From a virus, in the IMG/VR virus record IMGVR_UViG_3300021373_002523, positions 1 through 64,000 of that record: a DNA stretch of 64,000 bases. One strand, written 5' to 3'. Position numbers and translations under genes: made by a program. The notes below the pieces were generated by a model. The model saw nothing but the letters and a program-made list of their open reading frames with translations. It did no database searches and was not told the DNA's origin. Positions 3,043-62,510 of the stretch are shown one piece after another. Each line of letters opens with the position of its first letter. Positions within the stretch are counted from its first letter, which is position 1.

Positions 3043-3081
3043 GTTTTCCGTTTTTAGGTTTAGTATTAATTAATTATAGTA

Positions 3082-3151
3082 TAAATATAACACAATTTGT
3101 TGGGAATTGAACTATAAATTCTTGTTTTTTTCAAAAAAGTTATTAACAATT
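3082..3151 (-). promoter_or_regulatory. Early-type promoter with upstream AATTGTTAATAACTT box
   Basis: TTCAATTCCC-N12-TATATTTA (3082-3111), box at 3137-3151. Confidence 0.7.
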
Positions 3152-3622
3152 GTGGAATTCATAATGTGGATTCTCAACTGTGTCCGTTGATTTATTTAAC
3201 GGACCGTATGCAAGATCCGCCCAGGTTTTTGAACCGATGTTTTTCCAATGGTTATAGTCAGCCATTGATGAGAAGGAACTGTGAATGTCTCCAACTGTAA
3301 TGTTTTCCAAGATTTCTTTATCTATGATGTAGAACTTACCACCTTTCATTGCAAGAGCAGTTAGATAAACACCGCCTTCAGTTTTAATTTCAACTGTATG
3401 AAGTGCAGATTTCTTCCAACCTGTAACAATGTTACAAAGATAGTCTTTTCCGTCAGAAATGGTTAGGAACCCAGCTCTACATTTGGTAACTGCTCTATAC
3501 TCATATTGCTTATTCCAATCAAGGTTATGGTCATGAGCAGTAAATTTGTAAAACTTACCTTTTACCATTTGAGTGATTGAGTAACTGCCTCCGAAAGGTG
3601 TATTGTGTTTTGTAATTTGCAT
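3143..3622 (-). CDS. Hypothetical early protein
   Basis: 159-aa ORF with its own early promoter and AACGGAAAAC leader. Confidence 0.7.
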   Translation of the reverse strand: MQITKHNTPFGGSYSITQMVKGKFYKFTAHDHNLDWNKQYEYRAVTKCRAGFLTISDGKDYLCNIVTGWKKSALHTVEIKTEGGVYLTALAMKGGKFYIIDKEILENITVGDIHSSFSSMADYNHWKNIGSKTWADLAYGPLNKSTDTVENPHYEFHNC

Positions 3623-3646
3623 GTTTTCCGTTTTTTAAATTATATT

Positions 3647-3715
3647 TAAATATAATACTATTTGTTGGGTTTTGTACTATACTTTGGCAGTTTTTTTAGA
3701 AAGTTATTAACAATT
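3647..3715 (-). promoter_or_regulatory. Early-type promoter with upstream AATTGTTAATAACTT box
   Basis: TATATTTA at 3647-3654, CCC at conserved spacing, box at 3701-3715. Confidence 0.65.
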
Positions 3716-3906
3716 TATTGTTTATTGTCAATTAACTGTGCTGCTTTATATAATTCATCAACGGCTGTTGATATATGATCTTTAATTTGTGGTTCTATTT
3801 TAGCAACTGGGTGTTGTTGTAAGATTCCTTCCATGATAAGAGATACTGTAGCTAACCTATCTCTAAAGAATTCATATTGCTCGGAGGGTAACTTTGGTTT
3901 ACTCAT
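3715..3906 (-). CDS. Hypothetical protein
   Basis: 63-aa ORF in the co-oriented gene run. Confidence 0.6.
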   Translation of the reverse strand: MSKPKLPSEQYEFFRDRLATVSLIMEGILQQHPVAKIEPQIKDHISTAVDELYKAAQLIDNKQ

Positions 3907-4014
3907 TTAAAATAGAAGTTTAAAAATACAATTCCAAATTACATAAGTAAATAAAAATATAAAAATCCAAGTAAAAATAAAACCCCATCTATATTTCTTA
4001 TACCACTTCATATA

Positions 4015-7149: not shown

Positions 7150-7587
7150 TTAAAGAGCCTTTTCAATTGCCTTTTTAATTGCTGATGAAAATGCAGTTTT
7201 ACTGAAAGCTAATTTATCATTATTAAGATCTATGAAAGTTGCCTCAACTGTTGATTTTGCTTTACCTTCTACTTCAATTTCTTTACCATCCATATAGATT
7301 AGCAACTTTACAATAGTTCTTTTACTAACTTTAGTCCATGGTCCTAATTCAATCCCAGTTGTTGGGGCCTCAATAGATTTCACAACTATTATTACAGGTT
7401 TACCATCCATACATAATTCATATTTGTCTGAAATAATATCTTCCACCATTTGCTTAATTCCAAATACGATACGGTTCTTTCCGATTTCTTCCATTTCTAT
7501 TTGTGTTCCTACTCTGGCCACAGTATAGCATTCCTGTGAAAATGAAAGTATAGGTAGAAGCATTAATGCTATAATTAAATTTTTCAT
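7150..7587 (-). CDS. Secreted protein, small CsgG-like paralog
   Basis: Signal peptide; NRIVFGIKQMV...SAIKKAIEKAL parallels NRVGLGVSNI...IATKKALETA of 8847..9551. Confidence 0.5.
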   Translation of the reverse strand: MKNLIIALMLLPILSFSQECYTVARVGTQIEMEEIGKNRIVFGIKQMVEDIISDKYELCMDGKPVIIVVKSIEAPTTGIELGPWTKVSKRTIVKLLIYMDGKEIEVEGKAKSTVEATFIDLNNDKLAFSKTAFSSAIKKAIEKAL

Positions 7588-7588
7588 A

Positions 7589-8866
7589 TTAAAATCTTAT
7601 TTTACCACCAGTTAAAACTTGATAATTTAAAGCATTACCATTAGAATGCCAAACGCCTGTAAAACTGATATTATATTTAAATGTTTTTGTTATTTTAATA
7701 TCCCAAGAACTAAACGGAACTATTAAAATTCCAGGATCCCACCACTTACCTTCATAAAATTGAGTGAATGGTGAATAAACTCCTAGAAGTAAAGTTGAGG
7801 TTGTAATTCTTGGACTAACTCTAAAATTTCTATGTGCACCTACAACAGCTGAAAGATTTAATAATTCCCTTTCTCCTAATTTGCCTAAAGTAAAATTAGC
7901 ACCAGCCATACCTGTAGTTTTTCCCATCTTCCATGATTCAAGAGCAGTGGTAGTATTAAAATGATTTTTATCAAAATCTGTCATAGTGGTATTAGCTCCC
8001 ACTAAATTAAAAGTTCTTTTAGGATTAATCCAAGATTTATAAAATGTTAAACTAAAATCATTTGTAACAGATGTATATGTAAAGAGAGCACCTTTAATTC
8101 TATTTTGTTTTGTATTGGCATGTGTAATAGAACCAACCACCTTTAACTGCCTACCGTTTGAATTATCTTGATTGTCAATAACAATGATATCACCTGATGC
8201 AATTAGTGATCCTCTATTTTTATTATCAGCATCTCCACCATCTACTGCATTGGAAATAGAATTAGCTAATGATAATGTTGCTGTGCCTTCTGTTTCTTCT
8301 TCCTCAGTTCCATCTAAACTTCCACTATTAGATCCAGTTCCTTCTTCACTATTATTTCCTCCGCTACCTTGATTTATATTTGATGAATTTTCAGAATTAG
8401 AATTACTTTGATTATTAGATGATTTTTTCTTTTCTTCTTCCTCATCTTCACCTGCCGAATTATCTATGGCTTCTGCAACCGGAACAGCAGATGCAGATAC
8501 TGTTTGAGGTAACATATCCCCTCCTAAGATTGACATAACATTTGTAACAACGGTGATAGTATTTTGAATAACAACAGCATTTGTAGTATTCATAATTACT
8601 TGTGTTATACTTTCACAAGGCGATGAACTATTAGCTTGAGTAACTAAATCCATCCATGAATCAAATGTACCATCTGTAAAATCAGTCTGTGTAAATGTTT
8701 GAACATTACCAAAATAGTTTAAAGCAATTGAACCACTAGAGCCCATTTGAATTGTTTGCTGATTTAAAGTACAAGGATCAGTAAATGTATAAGACCATTG
8801 GCCATAACTAACTAATGGTGCTAAGAATAGTAGAAATGTAATTATTTTATTCTTCAAATATTCCAC
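7589..8866 (-). CDS. Outer-membrane beta-barrel protein with N-terminal domain and S/N/E/G-rich linker
   Basis: Signal peptide, two-Cys N-domain, low-complexity linker, amphipathic beta strands, terminal Phe (GGKIRF). Confidence 0.6.
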   Translation of the reverse strand: MEYLKNKIITFLLFLAPLVSYGQWSYTFTDPCTLNQQTIQMGSSGSIALNYFGNVQTFTQTDFTDGTFDSWMDLVTQANSSSPCESITQVIMNTTNAVVIQNTITVVTNVMSILGGDMLPQTVSASAVPVAEAIDNSAGEDEEEEKKKSSNNQSNSNSENSSNINQGSGGNNSEEGTGSNSGSLDGTEEEETEGTATLSLANSISNAVDGGDADNKNRGSLIASGDIIVIDNQDNSNGRQLKVVGSITHANTKQNRIKGALFTYTSVTNDFSLTFYKSWINPKRTFNLVGANTTMTDFDKNHFNTTTALESWKMGKTTGMAGANFTLGKLGERELLNLSAVVGAHRNFRVSPRITTSTLLLGVYSPFTQFYEGKWWDPGILIVPFSSWDIKITKTFKYNISFTGVWHSNGNALNYQVLTGGKIRF

Positions 8867-12779: not shown

Positions 12780-13400
12780 TTAATTTAAAAATACCTTTGC
12801 CCTAGAGCCATCATTATATTCAAAAAGATATAATCTACCAGGTTCTAAACCAATTATATCTTTTTGGATATACCTACCAAGAAAGTCCCATACTCCTGTT
12901 ACCTCCTTATTAACATTTACTAATTCGGCAACATTAACTACATCATAACAATTATCCCAGACAGGATTAAAGCCAATGTAATTATTAGAATTGTTAGGAT
13001 CTAGGTTAATAGAATTATTTACACCTGTTGCAGTGACTGTGGCCACGCAAGTTTCTTGGTAAGAAGCAAATGCATTATCAAAACAACTAAAAGGGTCTGT
13101 CCAATCGGAGAAAGAATACGTGATAGTGTCATTTAAACCAAGAGGTGGATAAAAGTTACTAGTATTAGAAGAAAGGTTACACATCATAGCATCATAACTA
13201 AAATAAAGTTGTACTACATAAACAGAATCAGGTGTAGGTACCCATGAAGGTGTTGATGAATTGGAACAAACATTATCATTTAAAGTTAAAGTTATGGTTT
13301 GGTCATCCCAGTCTATATTTAATAATTCAAGATCACATGTTTGTGCAGATATGCCTGTAGCTAGAAAAAGGCCATAAAAGGCTAAGAGTAGATGTTTCAT
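12780..13400 (-). CDS. Secreted Cys-rich protein with T9SS-like C-terminal domain
   Basis: Signal peptide; C-terminal WDFLGRY...LYLFEYNDGSRAKV. Confidence 0.55.
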   Translation of the reverse strand: MKHLLLAFYGLFLATGISAQTCDLELLNIDWDDQTITLTLNDNVCSNSSTPSWVPTPDSVYVVQLYFSYDAMMCNLSSNTSNFYPPLGLNDTITYSFSDWTDPFSCFDNAFASYQETCVATVTATGVNNSINLDPNNSNNYIGFNPVWDNCYDVVNVAELVNVNKEVTGVWDFLGRYIQKDIIGLEPGRLYLFEYNDGSRAKVFLN

Positions 13401-18763: not shown

Positions 18764-19489
18764 TTATTTTTTAGTTGTTGGCATTAACCACATCCCATCT
18801 TTTAATATAACTTCCATTAATCCAGGTATAGTTCTTAAAAGGTTTAAACTCTTAAGAGTATCATGCTTAAACATTTTAGTAACTTCTTCTCTTATTCTTT
18901 CTTGAGAAACTACATCTTCTAATTTTCTTAGCAAACCTGGCTCTTGCATACATTCCCATAATTCATCATCAAAGGTAAAACCTTTAGTGATGGAAAATCT
19001 TAAGCCTCTTATCATTCTTAAAGGATCGTCCATTAAAGTTTTCATTGGAGGTAATGGAGTTCTAAGGATTCTATTATTTAAATCTGTAACACCATTAAAC
19101 ATATCTATGATTTTACCGTTCTCATCTTTACATAAAGCATTAAGAGTAAAATCTCTTCTCATTAAGTCATCTTCCAAAGTACCTAATTCCAATATAGGTT
19201 TTCTAGTTCCAGGAATAACGCCTACTTCTTTCCTAGACATAACAAAGTCAGCAACTAAGCCTTCATGTTTATGCCCTTTAGGAAACATAGCTCTTACAGT
19301 AAAACAGTCTGGTGTTTTTAAGAATATTTTGAATCCTTCAAATTCAAGGATAGATAGCATTTTACCCCACCCTTCTTCTACTGTCATATCAGTATTATCT
19401 AATACAAAAGTAAAGTCGATGTCTTTTGTATGAACTCCTAAGATTTCGTCCCTTACACAACCACCGACTTCAAATATTTTATGTTCCAT
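18764..19489 (-). CDS. tRNA nucleotidyltransferase (CCA-adding) / poly(A) polymerase family
   Basis: GGCVRD, DIDF, DLMRRDFTLNAL, DDPLRMIRGLRF, SQERIREE. Confidence 0.9.
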   Translation of the reverse strand: MEHKIFEVGGCVRDEILGVHTKDIDFTFVLDNTDMTVEEGWGKMLSILEFEGFKIFLKTPDCFTVRAMFPKGHKHEGLVADFVMSRKEVGVIPGTRKPILELGTLEDDLMRRDFTLNALCKDENGKIIDMFNGVTDLNNRILRTPLPPMKTLMDDPLRMIRGLRFSITKGFTFDDELWECMQEPGLLRKLEDVVSQERIREEVTKMFKHDTLKSLNLLRTIPGLMEVILKDGMWLMPTTKK

Positions 19490-19511
19490 TTTCCGTTATT
19501 TAATTATATTA

Positions 19512-19580
19512 TAAATATAATACATTTTCACGGGATTTGAACTATAGTTTCACGTTTTTTTCAAAAAGTTATTAACAATT
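19512..19580 (-). promoter_or_regulatory. Early-type promoter with AATTGTTAATAACTT box
   Basis: TTCAAATCCC-N12-TATATTTA (19512-19541), box at 19566-19580. Confidence 0.7.
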
Positions 19581-19585
19581 TTAAA

Positions 19586-19664
19586 ACTCCACTTGGACTC
19601 CACCTTTCGGTTTGTAGGCGTGAGATTTGACGCCTCGTTGTTCGGTATTAACCTATCCAAGAGC
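19586..19664 (-). ncRNA. Structured RNA (four-way junction) directly 3' of the tRNA-like gene
   Basis: P1 CUUGGAU/GUCCAAG enclosing GGU-UAAU-ACC, AGGCGU-8-ACGCCU and ACC-GAAA-GGU. Confidence 0.5.
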
Positions 19665-19777
19665 TGGGTGGTAGGGGAATCGAACCCCTGATCGCATATC
19701 TCCGATTTACTCATCGTTGCTAGCATTAACTTCCAACCGTTAAGAAATATGCAGCCGTACCACTTGGCTAACCTCCC
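19665..19777 (-). tRNA. tRNA-like RNA with 42-nt insertion in the anticodon loop; isotype undetermined
   Basis: GGGAGGU/ACCACCC acceptor (A4:A69 mismatch), D-arm GCC-AAGUGGUAC-GGC, stem GCAUA/UAUGC around 49 nt, T-arm AGGGG-UUCGAUU-CCCCU; no CCA. Confidence 0.75.
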
Positions 19778-19786
19778 ATATTTAAT

Positions 19787-20147: not shown

Positions 20148-20177
20148 TAAATATAAACTATTTTATTGGGAATTGAA
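20148..20177 (-). promoter_or_regulatory. Early-type promoter
   Basis: TTCAATTCCC-N12-TATATTTA. Confidence 0.7.
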
Positions 20178-20358
20178 CTATAAAATCTTGTTTTTTAATA
20201 GCCCATTATTCCAGCAAGAGCTAAAAGAAGTATACTCCCACCACCTAAAACTTTCCAATACCATTTTTCAACCCAATCATCTTCAAAAACAATAAGATGA
20301 AATAAAAAACTTAGCCCTATAATAAATAGGCATGCAAACATTTCCATTATTGGTCCCA

Positions 20359-20664: not shown

Positions 20665-21645
20665 TTAAACTTCTAATACTAATTGATTATCTATGTGTAC
20701 ATCAAAAGGTAAGTAAGATTCTAACAATGAATCTTTATCATCCTTGTATTTTAGTACAGCCACTTCTTTAGCTTTAGCTTCTACTTCTATATCTACAGCA
20801 AAACCGTAGTCATCAATTTGTTCGTATACAAAATCTGCATGTGCTTGTGCTTTACAGCCTGGATCTTCGAATGTTCTTCGGCAAGATGAATAATGAAAAA
20901 GTGGTTTTACATTATGATATTCCCATGTTTCTTTTGCCATTATGAATGCATCCCTTTCGGATAATCCACCATCATTAAATCTGTGGTGGTGGAAGTCAAA
21001 TGTAATAGGTACTCTTACCTCCGTAAAAATACCCCAATACAAATCTTTTACTGAATACATACTTCCTTTATCATCATTTTCTACAACTAACCTACTCTGA
21101 GCCGATACTGATAAATTTTTAAAATTATCAGACCATCTTTTTAATGTAGCCTTTTTATCGCCGTATACTCCATTGCAATGAATATTAATAGGATAATGAT
21201 TAGATCTCTCTAATCCCATAAGATCCATTATTTCAGCAGTTTGATTTAATTCTTTGAGGGTTTTTGAAACAAGATCTGGATTAGGTGATCCTAGAACATT
21301 AAAAGGCCCTGGGTGAAAACTTAATCTTTGTCCATATTTCTTAGCCAAATTACCCGCACCCCTAAGCAATGTAGATATTTTTTGATAATCTGGTAAATCT
21401 TTAAGTTCATATTCAGACATCCAAGGAAACATATTAGAAGACATCCTGTAAACTTTAAATCCATTTTGTTCATTCCATTTAATAATCTCTACAAGATCTC
21501 TGATATTTTGTAAAGCAAGGCTACTTACATGAGGTAAACCTTTTTGTGCAAAGGTTGCCTTTCTGCATGTTCTATTAACTGTTATCTTTTTTGGTTGAAG
21601 ATTTAGATTGATACAGCAATAACCTAATTGAGTACTTGGATTCAT
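20665..21645 (-). CDS. uvsE: UV damage endonuclease
   Basis: LGYCC, YRMSSNMFP, RLSFHPG, LVVENDD, FDFHHH, HYS, HADF, EVEAKAKE. Confidence 0.95.
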   Translation of the reverse strand: MNPSTQLGYCCINLNLQPKKITVNRTCRKATFAQKGLPHVSSLALQNIRDLVEIIKWNEQNGFKVYRMSSNMFPWMSEYELKDLPDYQKISTLLRGAGNLAKKYGQRLSFHPGPFNVLGSPNPDLVSKTLKELNQTAEIMDLMGLERSNHYPINIHCNGVYGDKKATLKRWSDNFKNLSVSAQSRLVVENDDKGSMYSVKDLYWGIFTEVRVPITFDFHHHRFNDGGLSERDAFIMAKETWEYHNVKPLFHYSSCRRTFEDPGCKAQAHADFVYEQIDDYGFAVDIEVEAKAKEVAVLKYKDDKDSLLESYLPFDVHIDNQLVLEV

Positions 21646-21703: not shown

Positions 21704-22315
21704 TTAATTTGTATAACAACACCAAGATGTTAAAATAATCTTATCATCAGATATAGGCATACAGCCTTTATGAACATAAGGCCATGCAGCTGGATGAATT
21801 ATTAACCTACCCTGCTTAGGTTTAACTTTAAAATAGTCAGCCTTATCTTTTTCTTTAAAATAAAATGCAGTTTCCCCACCTTCTTCTACATCATTAAGGT
21901 AAAGAATAAAAACAAATAATCGATTTGATGTATCTTTATTATAGTTTTCTAAATGCCAAGTATTAAAATGCCCTTCTTCTTTTTGATATTTTTGGATTTG
22001 AAATACTGGATAGTATGTTTGATTCATAATAACTGATGATGTATCAAATTCAGCCCAAGGAGAGAAGAACCGAAGATATCTGAGGTGATGTTCATTAAAT
22101 CTGTTAGCTACGAGATTAGTTAATTCTCTATCATTATCATTGTCTCCTTTAATAATATCCCAATCTACTGATTTTTTATGCTCAGCTAATTCACCATAGC
22201 CGCCTTCCCAAGCCGCACCTGAATTTATTGCATTGGTGTGAGATTCAATTAATCTTAAACATTCTTCTTTTGTGAATGCATCATCAAAAATTCTTATACT
22301 ATCTTTAAATTCCAT
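21704..22315 (-). CDS. 2OG-Fe(II) oxygenase
   Basis: WHLE...LYLNDVEEGGET...PYVHKG...K. Confidence 0.85.
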   Translation of the reverse strand: MEFKDSIRIFDDAFTKEECLRLIESHTNAINSGAAWEGGYGELAEHKKSVDWDIIKGDNDNDRELTNLVANRFNEHHLRYLRFFSPWAEFDTSSVIMNQTYYPVFQIQKYQKEEGHFNTWHLENYNKDTSNRLFVFILYLNDVEEGGETAFYFKEKDKADYFKVKPKQGRLIIHPAAWPYVHKGCMPISDDKIILTSWCCYTN

Positions 22316-23823: not shown

Positions 23824-24492
23824 TTATTTTCCACCAATTACCTCGTCAATTATTCCATACTTAACAGCTTCTTCAGCATTCATCCAAAAATCTCTTGTTG
23901 CATCCTTTGCAACTTTATCTGCTCTTTTGCCGCAATATTTTCCTAAGAGAACAAATAGTTCTTTATTTACTTTTTGCCATTCTTTCCAATCAATTTCAGC
24001 ATCTTGAATATTTCCTCTAAACCCACCTGAAGATTGATGTAACATTGTTTTAGAATGTTTTAAAGAACTTCTTTTACCTTTTGTTCCTGCTCCTAGTAAA
24101 ACAGATCCCATTGAAGCAGCCATTCCAGTATTAACCGTTCTAATATCTGATTTAATATAATCCATAACATCTACCATTGAAAGTCCTGATTTAACCGAAC
24201 CTCCTGGAGAATCAATATGCATTGTAATATCCTTTTTCTCCACACTATCCAAAAACATTAATTGAGCTTGGACAATTGTAGACATATTATCATTGACTGG
24301 CCCAGCCACCCATAGTAACCTATCCATCATTAACCTTGAAAATATATCAATTTGCGTGGCTCTCATTTCTCTCTCCTCTAAAATATAAGGAGTCATTGAG
24401 TTTTCAATATGCTTTTCATAATAGTCCAATGTTGATGAACTTACATTATGATCACTCATTGCATATTTTTGAAATTCTTTTCCGTAATTCAT
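23824..24492 (-). CDS. clpP: ATP-dependent Clp protease proteolytic subunit
   Basis: DIFSRL, SPGG, GMAASMG (Ser), MLHQ (His), RDFW; Bacteroidota-style N-terminus. Confidence 0.97.
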   Translation of the reverse strand: MNYGKEFQKYAMSDHNVSSSTLDYYEKHIENSMTPYILEEREMRATQIDIFSRLMMDRLLWVAGPVNDNMSTIVQAQLMFLDSVEKKDITMHIDSPGGSVKSGLSMVDVMDYIKSDIRTVNTGMAASMGSVLLGAGTKGKRSSLKHSKTMLHQSSGGFRGNIQDAEIDWKEWQKVNKELFVLLGKYCGKRADKVAKDATRDFWMNAEEAVKYGIIDEVIGGK

Positions 24493-26516
24493 TATTCTTC
24501 TATATTAGTTATGTCAATTATTAATTCACCTTTAGTACTTTTAATATTAATTGTACCGCCTTCTTTTAATTCACCTTTAAGAATTAATTCTGACACTTTA
24601 TTTTCAATTAATCTTTCAATAGTTCTACGTAAAGGTCTTGCACCATACTTAGGATCATATCCTTGATTAAGTATTACTGTTTTAGCTCCTTTTGATATTT
24701 TAAAAATATAATTACCTACCTCAGATAAATTAGATGCTAATTCTTTACATTCCTTTGTTAGGATATCCATTACATTATCTTCAGTTAATCTGTTGAATAC
24801 TACAATCTCATCAATCCTATTTAAAAATTCTGGTGAAAATTTATTTTTAAGAGCTTTTCTTAAAATAGTTTTTTCTTCTTCAGCCTGATTAACAATTTTT
24901 GATGAACTTTCAAATCCAATACCTGAACCAAAATCTTGTAACTTTCTAGATCCTGTGTTTGATGTAAGTATTACTAAACAATTTCTAAAATCAACAGTTC
25001 TACCTAATGAATCAGTTAACTGCCCATCATCTAACATTTGTAGAAGTACATTAAATACCTCTGGATGAGCTTTCTCTATCTCGTCAAATAATATAACAGA
25101 ATGTGGTTTTCTCTTCACCTGCTCTGTTAAAAATCCACCACCTTCAAATCCTACATATCCTGGAGGCGCTCCAATTAATTTAGAAATTGAATGAGGCTCC
25201 ATGTATTCACTCATATCAACTCTAATTAATGATTCTTCACTATTAAATAAGTATTCTGTTAATTCTTTAGCCAATTGTGTTTTACCAACTCCAGTAGGAC
25301 CTAAGAAAATAAAGTTACCCATTGTTCTGTTTCTTTTTCTAATACCTACTCGGTTTCTTTGAACAGTTACAGATATTTTATTCACTGCTTCATCTTGACC
25401 TATTACTTTTGATGATAAATGTTTATTAAGACCTAATAGGTTTTTATTTTCTTTATCAGATATTTTTTCAATAGGTACACCTGTAGATTTAGATACAACT
25501 TTTAGTACATCATCTTCAGTTATTTCTAATTGATTAACAGCCATCTGTTCTTTCCATTCAGCTAAGTCTCTTTTAATTCTATCTTTAAGTGTTAAACACG
25601 CATCTCGTTCTTTAGCTGCTACTTCATATAATTGTCTGGAAACTGCTTTTCTTTTTGCATGTTCTTTATCTAATAATCTTTCCTCTAATGCTTTAATCTT
25701 TTGAGGAATTTTCATATTAGTTAAATGCTTGTAAGATCCTACCTCATCTAAAATATCAACAGCTTTATCTGGAAAGTATCTATCCATAATATATCGGTCT
25801 GCTAATTTAACAATAAGATCAATTATTGAATCATCATATGAAACACTATGGTGTTCTTCATACTTATGCCTAATGTTAGAAAGTATTTCAATCGTTTCTT
25901 CTAATGATGGGGGATTAACTGTTACTTTTTGAAACCTTCTATCTAAAGCACCATCATCTTCAATGTTTTCTCTAAACTCATCAAAGGTTGTAGCTCCTAT
26001 ACACCTAATCTCTCCTCTTGCTAATGCTGGTTTAATTATATTAGATGCGTCTAAAGATCCCGTAGAACTACCTGCACCTACTAAGGTATGTAATTCATCA
26101 ATGAATACGATAATATGTGGATTAAGAATTAATTCATCTACAATAGATTTCATTCTTTCCTCAAATTGACCTCTATATTTTGTACCTGCAACTATTGTAG
26201 ATAATTCTAATGTATAAATAACCTTTCCTTGTAAAGATACTGGAACATTACCTTCTACCATTTTTAAAGCTAAACCTTCAACAATGGCGGTTTTACCAAC
26301 ACCTGGCTCTCCTACTAAAACTGGATTGTTTTTTCTACGTCTACCTAAGATTTGAATAACTCTTAAGATTTCATCTGTTCTTCCAATAACAGGATCTAAC
26401 TTACCTTCACCTGCTAACTTACTTAAATTGGTACCGTAAGTATCTAAGATTAAAGTTTGCTTTTTAAATCTTTTCTTCTCTCTTTTTGGTTCTTCCTCTG
26501 GATATATTTCTCCCAT
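24492..26516 (-). CDS. clpC: ClpC/ClpA-family AAA+ unfoldase lacking the N-terminal domain
   Basis: Two AAA modules ([16 protein letters not shown]), UVR-like coil, IGF loop (SGIGFE), GARPLRR. Confidence 0.92.
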
Positions 26517-62048: not shown

Positions 62049-62061
62049 TATTTATTTTTTG

Positions 62062-62135
62062 TGGAGAATATCGGAGTCGAACCGATGGCCTCCTGCGTGC
62101 AAGGCAGGCGCTCTAGCCAGCTGAGCTAATTCCCC
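62062..62135 (-). tRNA. tRNA-Ala(UGC)
   Basis: GGGGAAU...CCUGC-CUUGCAC-GCAGG...UUCGACU...AUUCUCCA; G3:U70; CCA not encoded. Confidence 0.97.
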
Positions 62136-62138
62136 GTG

Positions 62139-62510
62139 TGGTGGAGGTGGTGGGATTCGAACCCACGTCCAATAAGCATCTATAAAAACATTTCTTACAG
62201 CTTAGGATAAGTTTTTGTAAACTTCCAAAATCAATAATGTTTTAAGCATAACATTTTAAAACTGCGTACTGTATAAAACTCTTTTCGTTTCCTTTCGGAC
62301 CCATAGGTGGTTTAGTAGCTCGCCCATTCACCTGTAGCTGCTTTCCTTTTACATCTTAATTATTTACAAGCATACTAATAATATGATGTGCATTTACTTA
62401 CCTCTTAGGCAGCCATTGCATACTCAGCGTTGTCGGCTAAGATTGATGTAGGTCATCACCCGGTGCTGTAGTTTTTATTTCAATCAGATTGTCAAAAACC
62501 GTTCACCCCC
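62139..62510 (-). ncRNA. ssrA: tmRNA
   Basis: 5' GGGGGUG pairs with 3' CACCUCC-ACCA (G3:U); T-arm GUGGG-UUCGAAU-CCCAC; tag frame 62437-62405 = ADNAEYAMAA*. Confidence 0.95.

Follow-up and report, generated by a model that had tools for sequence, protein, structure and literature searches.

The DNA analysed here is a stretch of 64,000 nucleotides (nt) from a virus (positions 1 to 64,000 of IMG/VR record IMGVR_UViG_3300021373_002523), referred to below as the window; the source phage is AT-rich, with ~30% G+C. Our subject is a 191-nt unit on the minus strand of this window, in which a tRNA-like head with a long structured arm at the place of the anticodon arm is followed by a strongly conserved 3′ domain. 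The initial annotation had recognized the head and had given the RNA the extent 19665-19777; the head stood up to comparison, whereas the 3′ end did not, given that the conserved unit continues to 19587. The self-complementary arm tip and the existence of a family, both described below, had gone unrecognized there. The unit and the parts of its head are as follows.

19587-19777, minus strand: whole conserved unit, 191 nt (head, one discriminator base and 3′ domain), delimited by comparison with loci L002 and L026
19665-19777, minus strand: tRNA-like head, matched by the Rfam tRNA model at 43 bits, with compensatory changes in the acceptor, D and T stems
19771-19777 / 19666-19672, minus strand: acceptor stem of the head
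19754-19768, minus strand: D arm
19673-19689, minus strand: T arm
19665, minus strand: discriminator base, A

Read directly from the sequence, the head has the acceptor stem GGGAGGU/ACCACCC with a mismatch A4:A69, the D arm GCCA/CGGC with the loop AGUGGUA, the T arm AGGGG-UUCGAUU-CCCCU, a variable loop of 4 nt and the discriminator A, and CCA is not encoded; the cloverleaf features listed in the initial annotation are thus all present. The Rfam tRNA model (RF00005, gathering score 29 bits) matches positions 19665-19777 of the minus strand over its full length at 43.0 bits, with E-values of 8.6e-6 when the whole window is searched and 5e-8 for the local region, and places 45 inserted nt in the anticodon loop. 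Between the anticodon-stem halves GCAUA/UAUGC, where a 7-nt loop is expected, stand 49 nt, so that the alignment and the direct reading both confirm the replacement of the anticodon loop by a 49-nt domain. In 59 homologs, no variation is seen at the elbow nucleotides (U8, A14, GG and UUCGA). The acceptor stem is less regular: within group 1, the group to which the window phage belongs, 30 of 37 variants carry exactly one mismatch, in which an A of the 5′ strand faces C or A at pair 3-70, 4-69 or 5-68, and A4:A69 is therefore a recurrent feature; the group borne in tRNA arrays, described below, has no acceptor-stem mismatch.

The unit was delimited by comparing the loci around homologs of a neighbouring nucleotidyltransferase gene. 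Locus L002, where this gene product is 98% identical, is without exactly positions 19589-19777: its alignment with the window stops at 19778 and restarts at 19588, which amounts to the presence or absence of 189 nt. In L026, an otherwise unrelated contig, 113 nt are copied at 100% identity, and the stretch shared with the window comes to only ~210 nt, at 98%, between unrelated flanks. Among the copies, homology runs from G1 of the head to ~78 nt beyond the discriminator, and the 3′ stretch is better conserved than the tRNA-like part. Head and 3′ domain behave as one cassette. The 3′ domain (hereafter, the tail) comprises the following elements.

19587-19664, minus strand: 3′ domain, 78 nt, a four-way junction with three hairpins, from comparison of homologs
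19661-19663 / 19587-19589, minus strand: closing helix P1a, CUC/GAG
19655-19660 / 19593-19598, minus strand: helix P1b, UUrrAU/GUyyAA, with double covariation at two positions
19644-19653, minus strand: hairpin A, GGU-UAAU-ACC, with a covarying stem and a loop of 4-8 nt that varies in length and sequence
19636-19643, minus strand: junction strand GAACAACG, invariant in 72 copies
19616-19635, minus strand: hairpin B, with an A-U closing pair, GGCGU/ACGCC and the loop CAAAUCUC, invariant in 72 copies
19612-19615, minus strand: junction strand ACAA
19602-19611, minus strand: hairpin C, ACC-GAAA-GGU, with a covarying stem (ACC/GGU, GUC/GAC, CC/GG)
19599-19601, minus strand: junction GGA

P1a and P1b are separated by a GUG bulge. 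The tail is ~95% identical between copies whose heads are down to 77% identical. Across the family, the junction strand GAACAACGA is invariant, as is the strand UACAA between hairpins B and C, and the divergent members retain the junction strands too. Hairpin B is kept with a different stem in the divergent copy L142, and its loop is enlarged in L143, L144 and L149; in L144:2689-2790 and L149:5310-5410 this loop holds an extra mini-hairpin, which in L144 is the 10-nt palindrome GUCGAUCGAC. Hairpin C mostly has a GAAA loop, which is replaced by another in L142 and L144. Taken together, invariant junction strands and free outer hairpins form a ribozyme- or aptamer-like pattern.

Other accounts of the tail were considered and set aside. 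An open reading frame (ORF) at 19550-19726 overlaps it, and a coding function was rejected because the length of hairpin A changes by non-multiples of three. The idea that the GAAA loop of hairpin C docks into a tetraloop receptor is weakened by the other loops of the divergent members, and codon/anticodon and mini-ORF patterns in P1b (AGA/UCU; GCU CUU AGA UAG) were dismissed as numerology. Inspection by eye for pairing of the tail with the arm, the T loop or the flanks revealed nothing conserved.

The arm that replaces the anticodon arm of the head is built of three helices.

19694-19752, minus strand: expanded arm replacing the anticodon arm, with covariation in homologs
19744-19752 / 19694-19702, minus strand: arm stem 1, with 5 of 9 pairs changed on both sides in 36 close homologs
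19740-19743, minus strand: arm bulge UUAA
19735-19739 / 19703-19707, minus strand: arm stem 2, 99% paired in the same 36 homologs
19731-19734, opposite 19708-19715, minus strand: arm internal loop, GGAA opposite GAUGAGUA
19716-19730, minus strand: arm stem 3 and its loop
19719-19724, minus strand: self-complementary hexamer GCUAGC in the apical loop, the proposed kissing-loop dimerization site

An anticodon stem of about 10 base pairs (bp) had been proposed in the initial annotation, and 9-10 bp were found, with covariation in the homologs; the single-sequence fold (-37 kcal/mol, z = -2.0) likewise lengthens this stem to 10 bp. The inner hairpins proposed along with it (UUAAC/GUUAA and UGCUAGCA) did not hold, as they are not conserved and the homologs favour stem 2 as CGGUU/AAUCG together with a short stem 3, in whose loop GCUAGC lies. 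Stem 2 occurs in the forms CGGUU/AAUCG, GGAUU/AAUCU and AGGCC/GGCUU. In the 36 close homologs, the bulge measures 4-5 nt and has AA at its end, stem 3 is short, and the apical loop comprises 8-13 nt. The internal loop, where GRAA faces a strand usually containing AGUA, resembles in sequence, and may form, a motif of the loop-E or sarcin-ricin type. Over all homologs, the arm spans from ~60 to ~90 nt or more.

The tip of the arm carries a self-complementary motif in nearly all of the 72 unique copies. At the aligned position it reads GCUAGC in 31 copies, ACUAGU in 28, GAUAUC in three and GAGCUC in three, and the longer-armed subfamilies have UGAUCA, UAGCUA or UAAUUA. Scored as three pairs (1-6, 2-5 and 3-4), the hexamer has canonical pairs in 100% of cases, and each of the three has undergone changes on both sides (GC 33 and AU 26 for pair 1-6; CG 53 and AU 6 for pair 2-5; UA 56 and GC 3 for pair 3-4). 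Because adjacent bases cannot pair inside one loop, a loop-loop (kissing) homodimer is the simplest reading of this pattern, and the covarying palindromic tip suggests that the RNA forms such a kissing-loop dimer. Retroviral dimerization sites use loop-loop kissing of this kind.

The same arm bears on the two readings that the initial annotation had offered, a protein-spliced tRNA intron and an unspliced tRNA mimic. Under the former, the locus would be a decoding tRNA gene with a 42-nt intron that is removed by a protein enzyme plus a ligase. The tRNA body is intact, and ARAGORN, which does not call the head at its default settings, can in intron mode be made to report the window copy as 'tRNA-Ser(tga), 42-nt intron'. 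However, the bases of the would-be anticodon loop are paired, with the pairing kept by compensatory changes, the 4-nt variable loop does not fit a bacterial tRNA-Ser, and U33 is missing in many homologs. Moreover, the intron-mode search, which the initial annotation had proposed as a check, gives inconsistent anticodons when run over 72 homologs that share the nearly invariant tail: 18 anticodons in 14 isotypes are forced, along with one 'stop' suppressor, and three copies remain without a call. The length of the insert ranges from ~42 to ~70 nt or more, yet the architecture is conserved. Neither a group I intron nor a bulge-helix-bulge is present, as the initial annotation had correctly seen: a group I intron has at least ~200 nt and a P3-P9 catalytic core, compared with an insert of 42-49 nt that has no match to the Rfam model Intron_gpI at E<=10, and a bulge-helix-bulge consists of two 3-nt bulges with a 4-bp helix between them at the exon-intron borders, whereas in the arm a 5-bp helix separates a bulge of 4 nt from an internal loop of 4/8 nt, and the borders are not conserved. 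We regard a spliced, decoding tRNA as very improbable; the comparative evidence fits the unspliced mimic. For such a mimic, the initial annotation had named a decoy for anticodon nucleases and a modulator of the ribosome or of a synthetase as possible roles.

Covariation was evaluated over the whole structure, as the initial annotation had also suggested. RNAalifold, applied to 59 aligned copies, returns the stems of the acceptor, D and T arms along with three tail helices, with compensatory changes in 13 of 31 pairs. The full manual model, which comprises 12 helices with 57 pairs and was tested on 59 sequences, has standard pairs in 87.4% of cells, a share that falls to 38-49% once the partners are displaced by 1-3 columns; both partners have changed in 30 of the 57 pairs, and 500 shuffles never attain the observed values. 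The covariation among homologs thus bears out the stems of the tRNA body, the lengthened arm and the helices of the tail.

With respect to distribution, an exact 20-nt piece of the 3′ stretch occurs in 24 IMG/VR contigs, a pattern with the hairpin-B stem left free retrieves the same 24 contigs plus 91 marine metagenome stretches, and two looser patterns bring the IMG/VR total to 32, adding divergent members. The 3′-domain pattern has no exact match in 185,579 bacterial and archaeal genomes; a blastn search with the unit yields no match among 50,697 sequenced phage records even at E<=10, and one with the tail yields none in Escherichia coli genomes, ribosomal RNA and tRNA genes included. In all, 72 unique full-length copies were extracted, of 181-252 nt and mainly 190-197 nt, besides ~5 divergent ones, and sequences of the unit are common in seawater, estuary and salt-marsh metagenomes. 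Rfam 15 holds no family for the unit, and literature searches did not find such an RNA described. On this evidence, the unit is a member of a widespread, undescribed family of marine-phage non-coding RNAs. The unit is also present in contigs of four metatranscriptome runs, each from a different study, and contigs from three RNA-library runs span the junction of head and tail, which proves little: because these contigs lack ends and strand, and DNA carry-over is possible, they amount to a weak hint of transcription.

The window copy is solitary, with protein genes on both sides. A second set of contigs, unrelated and as long as 212 kb (with an estimated completeness of 56-76%), has the unit within same-strand tRNA arrays, usually in the order tRNA-Leu(UAA), tRNA-Arg(UCU) and the unit, with the next tRNA 15-25 nt on. 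Flanking same-strand tRNAs are found in 55 of 119 contexts, a set made up of 118 extracted copies and one empty record and not deduplicated. In two cases (L032, ~12930-12965, and L123, ~1-30 of the extracted element), an extra T arm and acceptor 3′ strand stand directly upstream of the head; this element is not called by ARAGORN and may be a second non-canonical tRNA-like gene in tandem.

The initial annotation had allowed for homologs in which an ordinary tRNA carries a non-conserved insertion, that is, a decaying pseudogene; the insertion was instead found conserved and covarying as an RNA helix. A remnant of this kind, or a site acting at the level of DNA such as an attachment site or a homing-endonuclease target, might look like a compact cassette that is gained and lost and that has a DNA palindrome within its arm. 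Against this, the insertion is conserved with RNA-helix covariation, G-U pairs included, over more than 70 variants from unrelated phages, the unit always lies on the strand of the flanking tRNAs or genes, and none of the 185,579 host genomes scanned contains it, so that it is not a copy of an attachment site. A decayed gene or DNA site is accordingly an explanation that we consider scarcely credible.

The junction between head and tail invites two further explanations. Wherever enough upstream sequence is available, the tail opens with GCUCUU directly after the discriminator, with no variation in a linker, and lies 3′ of a tRNA-like head with an expanded arm; the discriminator itself is A in 58 of the 72 copies, C in 13 and G in one. 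An abutment so exact, irrespective of the discriminator base, together with a G as the first base of the tail (as in ribozymes like that of hepatitis delta virus, HDV), the invariant junction strands between variable outer hairpins and the lack of an encoded CCA, is what would be seen if the tail were a new self-cleaving ribozyme, theta-like in function, that cuts between the discriminator and G74, and theta ribozymes provide a precedent at the 3′ ends of phage tRNAs (PMC10879173). The topology, however, is not HDV-like, as three hairpins are enclosed, no nested double pseudoknot is present and nothing is conserved beyond the domain; no ribozyme family of Rfam 15, HDV-type or other, matches at E<=10; the tail was never seen behind an ordinary tRNA among the extracted copies, although such tRNAs adjoin it in the arrays; and, for what it is worth, RNA-library contigs cross the junction. 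An HDV-like or theta fold was also threaded by hand and rejected on topology, the partner of the 5′ strand being at the 3′ terminus, and the hammerhead, hairpin, twister-sister, pistol and hatchet ribozymes were considered, with no Rfam match at E<=10. A self-cleaving tail is therefore, in our estimate, improbable, if well short of fanciful.

We give the same low weight to the view that head and tail are two small RNAs from one precursor, the head being mainly a handle for RNase P and RNase Z that would give the tail an exact 5′ end, and the tail the effector, on the pattern of small RNAs linked to tRNAs and of RNAs D and C in T4. The acceptor stem closes the head and P1 closes the tail, and since each domain is closed by its own terminal helix, each can fold alone. 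The tail is far more conserved than the head, and phage T4 yields two separate stable RNAs at the equivalent place (PMC9697503). A plain handle, however, could do without a long conserved arm whose palindromic tip covaries; in the arrays, the ordinary tRNA just upstream would be available as a handle, and still the special head is never dropped; and no sequence similarity to T4 RNA C or RNA D is seen.

The genes and motifs around the unit in the window include the following.

18764-19489, minus strand: protein of the class II tRNA nucleotidyltransferase type, 241 aa (Pfam PolyA_pol head, 1e-17; phrog_24229, 1e-61)
20168-20182, minus strand: repeated motif TATAGTTCAAWTCCC, promoter-like, upstream of two small ORFs and the RNA
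19532-19546, minus strand: second copy of TATAGTTCAAWTCCC, between the RNA and the nucleotidyltransferase gene, outside the cassette
3102-3116, minus strand: third, exact copy of TATAGTTCAAWTCCC

The initial annotation had placed the RNA next to an enzyme of the CCA-adding type. The neighbour is indeed of the class II type, with head and neck regions only and scores below every NCBIfam equivalog cut-off, and its candidate products are CCA, A or poly(A); its gene is 66% identical at the DNA level to its counterpart in Cellulophaga phage phi4:1. The suggested functional link is weak. About half of all copies lie in tRNA arrays, and RNA and enzyme each occur without the other: L002 and L003 have the nucleotidyltransferase and no RNA, L028 and L029 have the RNA and no adjacent nucleotidyltransferase, and the enzyme is adjacent in 23 of ~38 related RNA-bearing loci. 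In L005, an extra ORF of 288 aa (3051-3917, of no known family) stands between the two. The interval 19490-19786, between ORFs of 62 and 105 aa, appears as a hot spot for accessory cassettes when compared with L002-L005 and L028, and the RNA unit, the 288-aa ORF and the nucleotidyltransferase come and go independently.

Two small same-strand ORFs precede the unit in the window. The motif TATAGTTCAAWTCCC has three exact copies, each upstream of minus-strand genes, and in 100 shuffles four matches at up to two mismatches were never obtained; it is probably a phage-specific promoter or regulatory motif. An early promoter upstream of the RNA had been postulated, and the promoter-like repeat at 20168-20182 supplies a candidate that could drive the two small ORFs and the RNA, its promoter function being conjectural. 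No terminator-like site was found at the locus of the unit in the window. Other minus-strand neighbours are a UvdE-type UV endonuclease (20665-21645), a 2-oxoglutarate (2OG)-Fe(II) oxygenase (21704-22315) and a ClpB-like double AAA+ ATPase of 674 aa (24492-26516); in L026, too, a 2OG-Fe(II) oxygenase (7311-8324) lies ~1.2 kb upstream of the identical RNA copy. Farther along the minus strand of the window, a transfer-messenger RNA (tmRNA) at 62139-62510 (74 bits, tag peptide DNAEYAMAA*, CCA end encoded) is directly followed by a tRNA-Ala(UGC) at 62061-62135.

The explanation that we put forward, and to which we attach somewhat better than even credence, is that the unit is a non-decoding tRNA mimic coupled to a conserved effector domain, processed by tRNA enzymes, dimeric, and acting as a decoy or scaffold. 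The 5′ domain is a complete tRNA body in which a long three-helix arm replaces the anticodon arm, and, because this arm has no anticodon, the unit cannot decode. As the head keeps every feature read by tRNA-processing enzymes, we infer that RNase P would excise the unit from its transcript at G1; a further cut at the discriminator/G74 bond could then yield two stable RNAs, comparable to T4 RNAs D and C. Two molecules would pair through their arm-tip hexamers into a symmetric kissing-loop dimer, while the 3′ four-way junction would be the functional core, either a binding site for a partner or a catalytic core. In our view, the whole would then act as a decoy or scaffold for a factor that recognizes the tRNA body. 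The comparisons demonstrate the structure, the family, the cassette behaviour and the lack of a conserved anticodon; processing, dimerization and a role as decoy or scaffold are inferences.

Several observations weigh against this proposal. The A:C or A:A mismatch in the acceptor stem of 30 of the 37 group 1 variants is unusual for an RNA handled as a tRNA. Palindromes of 6 nt are frequent by chance, ~49 of 72 shuffled arms having one, and the argument for a dimer therefore rests on the fixed position of the motif and on the changes that preserve the palindrome. Hairpin B is without covariation in the core set, its support coming from the few divergent members, and the RNA-library data consist of contigs, from which no transcript ends, strand or expression level can be read. 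Furthermore, a decoy role alone leaves the extreme conservation of the tail unexplained.

A more daring version of the proposal, which we think unlikely but worth stating, is an RNA-only machine in which the symmetric arm-tip dimer would display two tRNA bodies and the junction would be either a new class of self-cleaving ribozyme, cutting the bond between the discriminator and G74, or a trap for a conserved tRNA-handling factor of bacteria, for example a tRNA-targeting defence nuclease.

The family offers a way into the old question of the small RNAs in phage tRNA clusters, of which RNAs C and D of T4 were sequenced in the 1970s. It is widespread in marine phages and compact (~190 nt), and its architecture is directly testable: it has a tRNA body that processing enzymes should recognize, a probable dimerization loop and a small invariant core, which would be catalytic or else a binding site for something common to very different hosts. 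Should the tail prove to be a ribozyme, its class would be new and tied to the formation of tRNA ends; should the unit prove to be a decoy, the arms race over tRNA between phages and bacterial defence systems would include an RNA-based route as well. In addition, there is a practical consequence for annotation, in that tRNA finders run in intron mode will misreport these units as intron-bearing tRNAs of arbitrary isotype, false suppressors included.

Among known RNAs, tmRNA is similar in that a tRNA-like domain is joined to another domain and a long helix stands at the place of the anticodon arm. The tRNA-like domain of tmRNA, however, is formed from both ends of the molecule and has the alanine identity pair G3:U70, an encoded or added CCA end and a tag frame, whereas the unit has an internal 3′ strand of the acceptor stem, G-C or A:A as pair 3-70, and no tag frame; the Rfam tmRNA models match only 17 nt of the T arm, at 12.7 bits. 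YrlA, a bacterial Y RNA-like molecule, has reportedly been described (in work said to be that of Chen et al., 2014) as a non-decoding RNA in which the acceptor, D and T arms of tRNA are retained; YrlA is said to be permuted and to end in its Ro-binding stem on the 'anticodon' side, whereas the unit ends at the acceptor stem, and the Y RNA families in Rfam give no match.

ROOL and GOLLD are phage non-coding RNAs of unknown function that often lie near tRNA islands and form homo-oligomers through kissing loops, and in GOLLD the 3′ part is conserved and the 5′ part variable (PMC12286853, Kretsch et al. 2025). With lengths from ~580 to more than 800 nt, they are represented in Rfam 15 by models of their own, none of which matches the unit; the latter has 191 nt and contains a complete tRNA body, and for it oligomerization through kissing loops is suggested by the covarying palindrome alone. 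Theta ribozymes, which are minimal HDV-like ribozymes, cleave at the 3′ end of phage tRNAs (PMC10879173, Kienbeck et al. 2024), and the tail is similar to them in beginning with a G at the nucleotide that follows a tRNA-shaped RNA. The theta fold, however, is a nested double pseudoknot (P1, P1.1, P2 and P3) with a catalytic C in J4/2, whereas the tail is a four-way junction in which the two ends of the domain pair with each other; theta ribozymes come from gut phages, whereas the unit comes from marine phages and stands only behind a head without an anticodon.

The closest parallel in genomic setting is phage T4, where tRNA-Arg(UCU) is followed by RNA D (species 2, 119 nt) and then by RNA C (species 1, 139 nt), two RNAs 'of yet unknown functions' (PMC9697503). 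The relationship is not one of sequence, as an nhmmer search with the tail profile finds no match in the T4 locus, and no equivalent of the invariant four-way junction or of the palindromic tip is seen there. The tRNA-like part, a T arm with an acceptor-like stem, belongs in T4 to the second RNA, RNA C, whereas in the unit it comes first, and RNA D ends in an encoded CCA, which the unit does not have. The window copy stands alone between protein genes; the array-borne units, like the T4 pair, are phage non-decoding RNAs in a tRNA cluster and directly follow tRNA-Arg(UCU).

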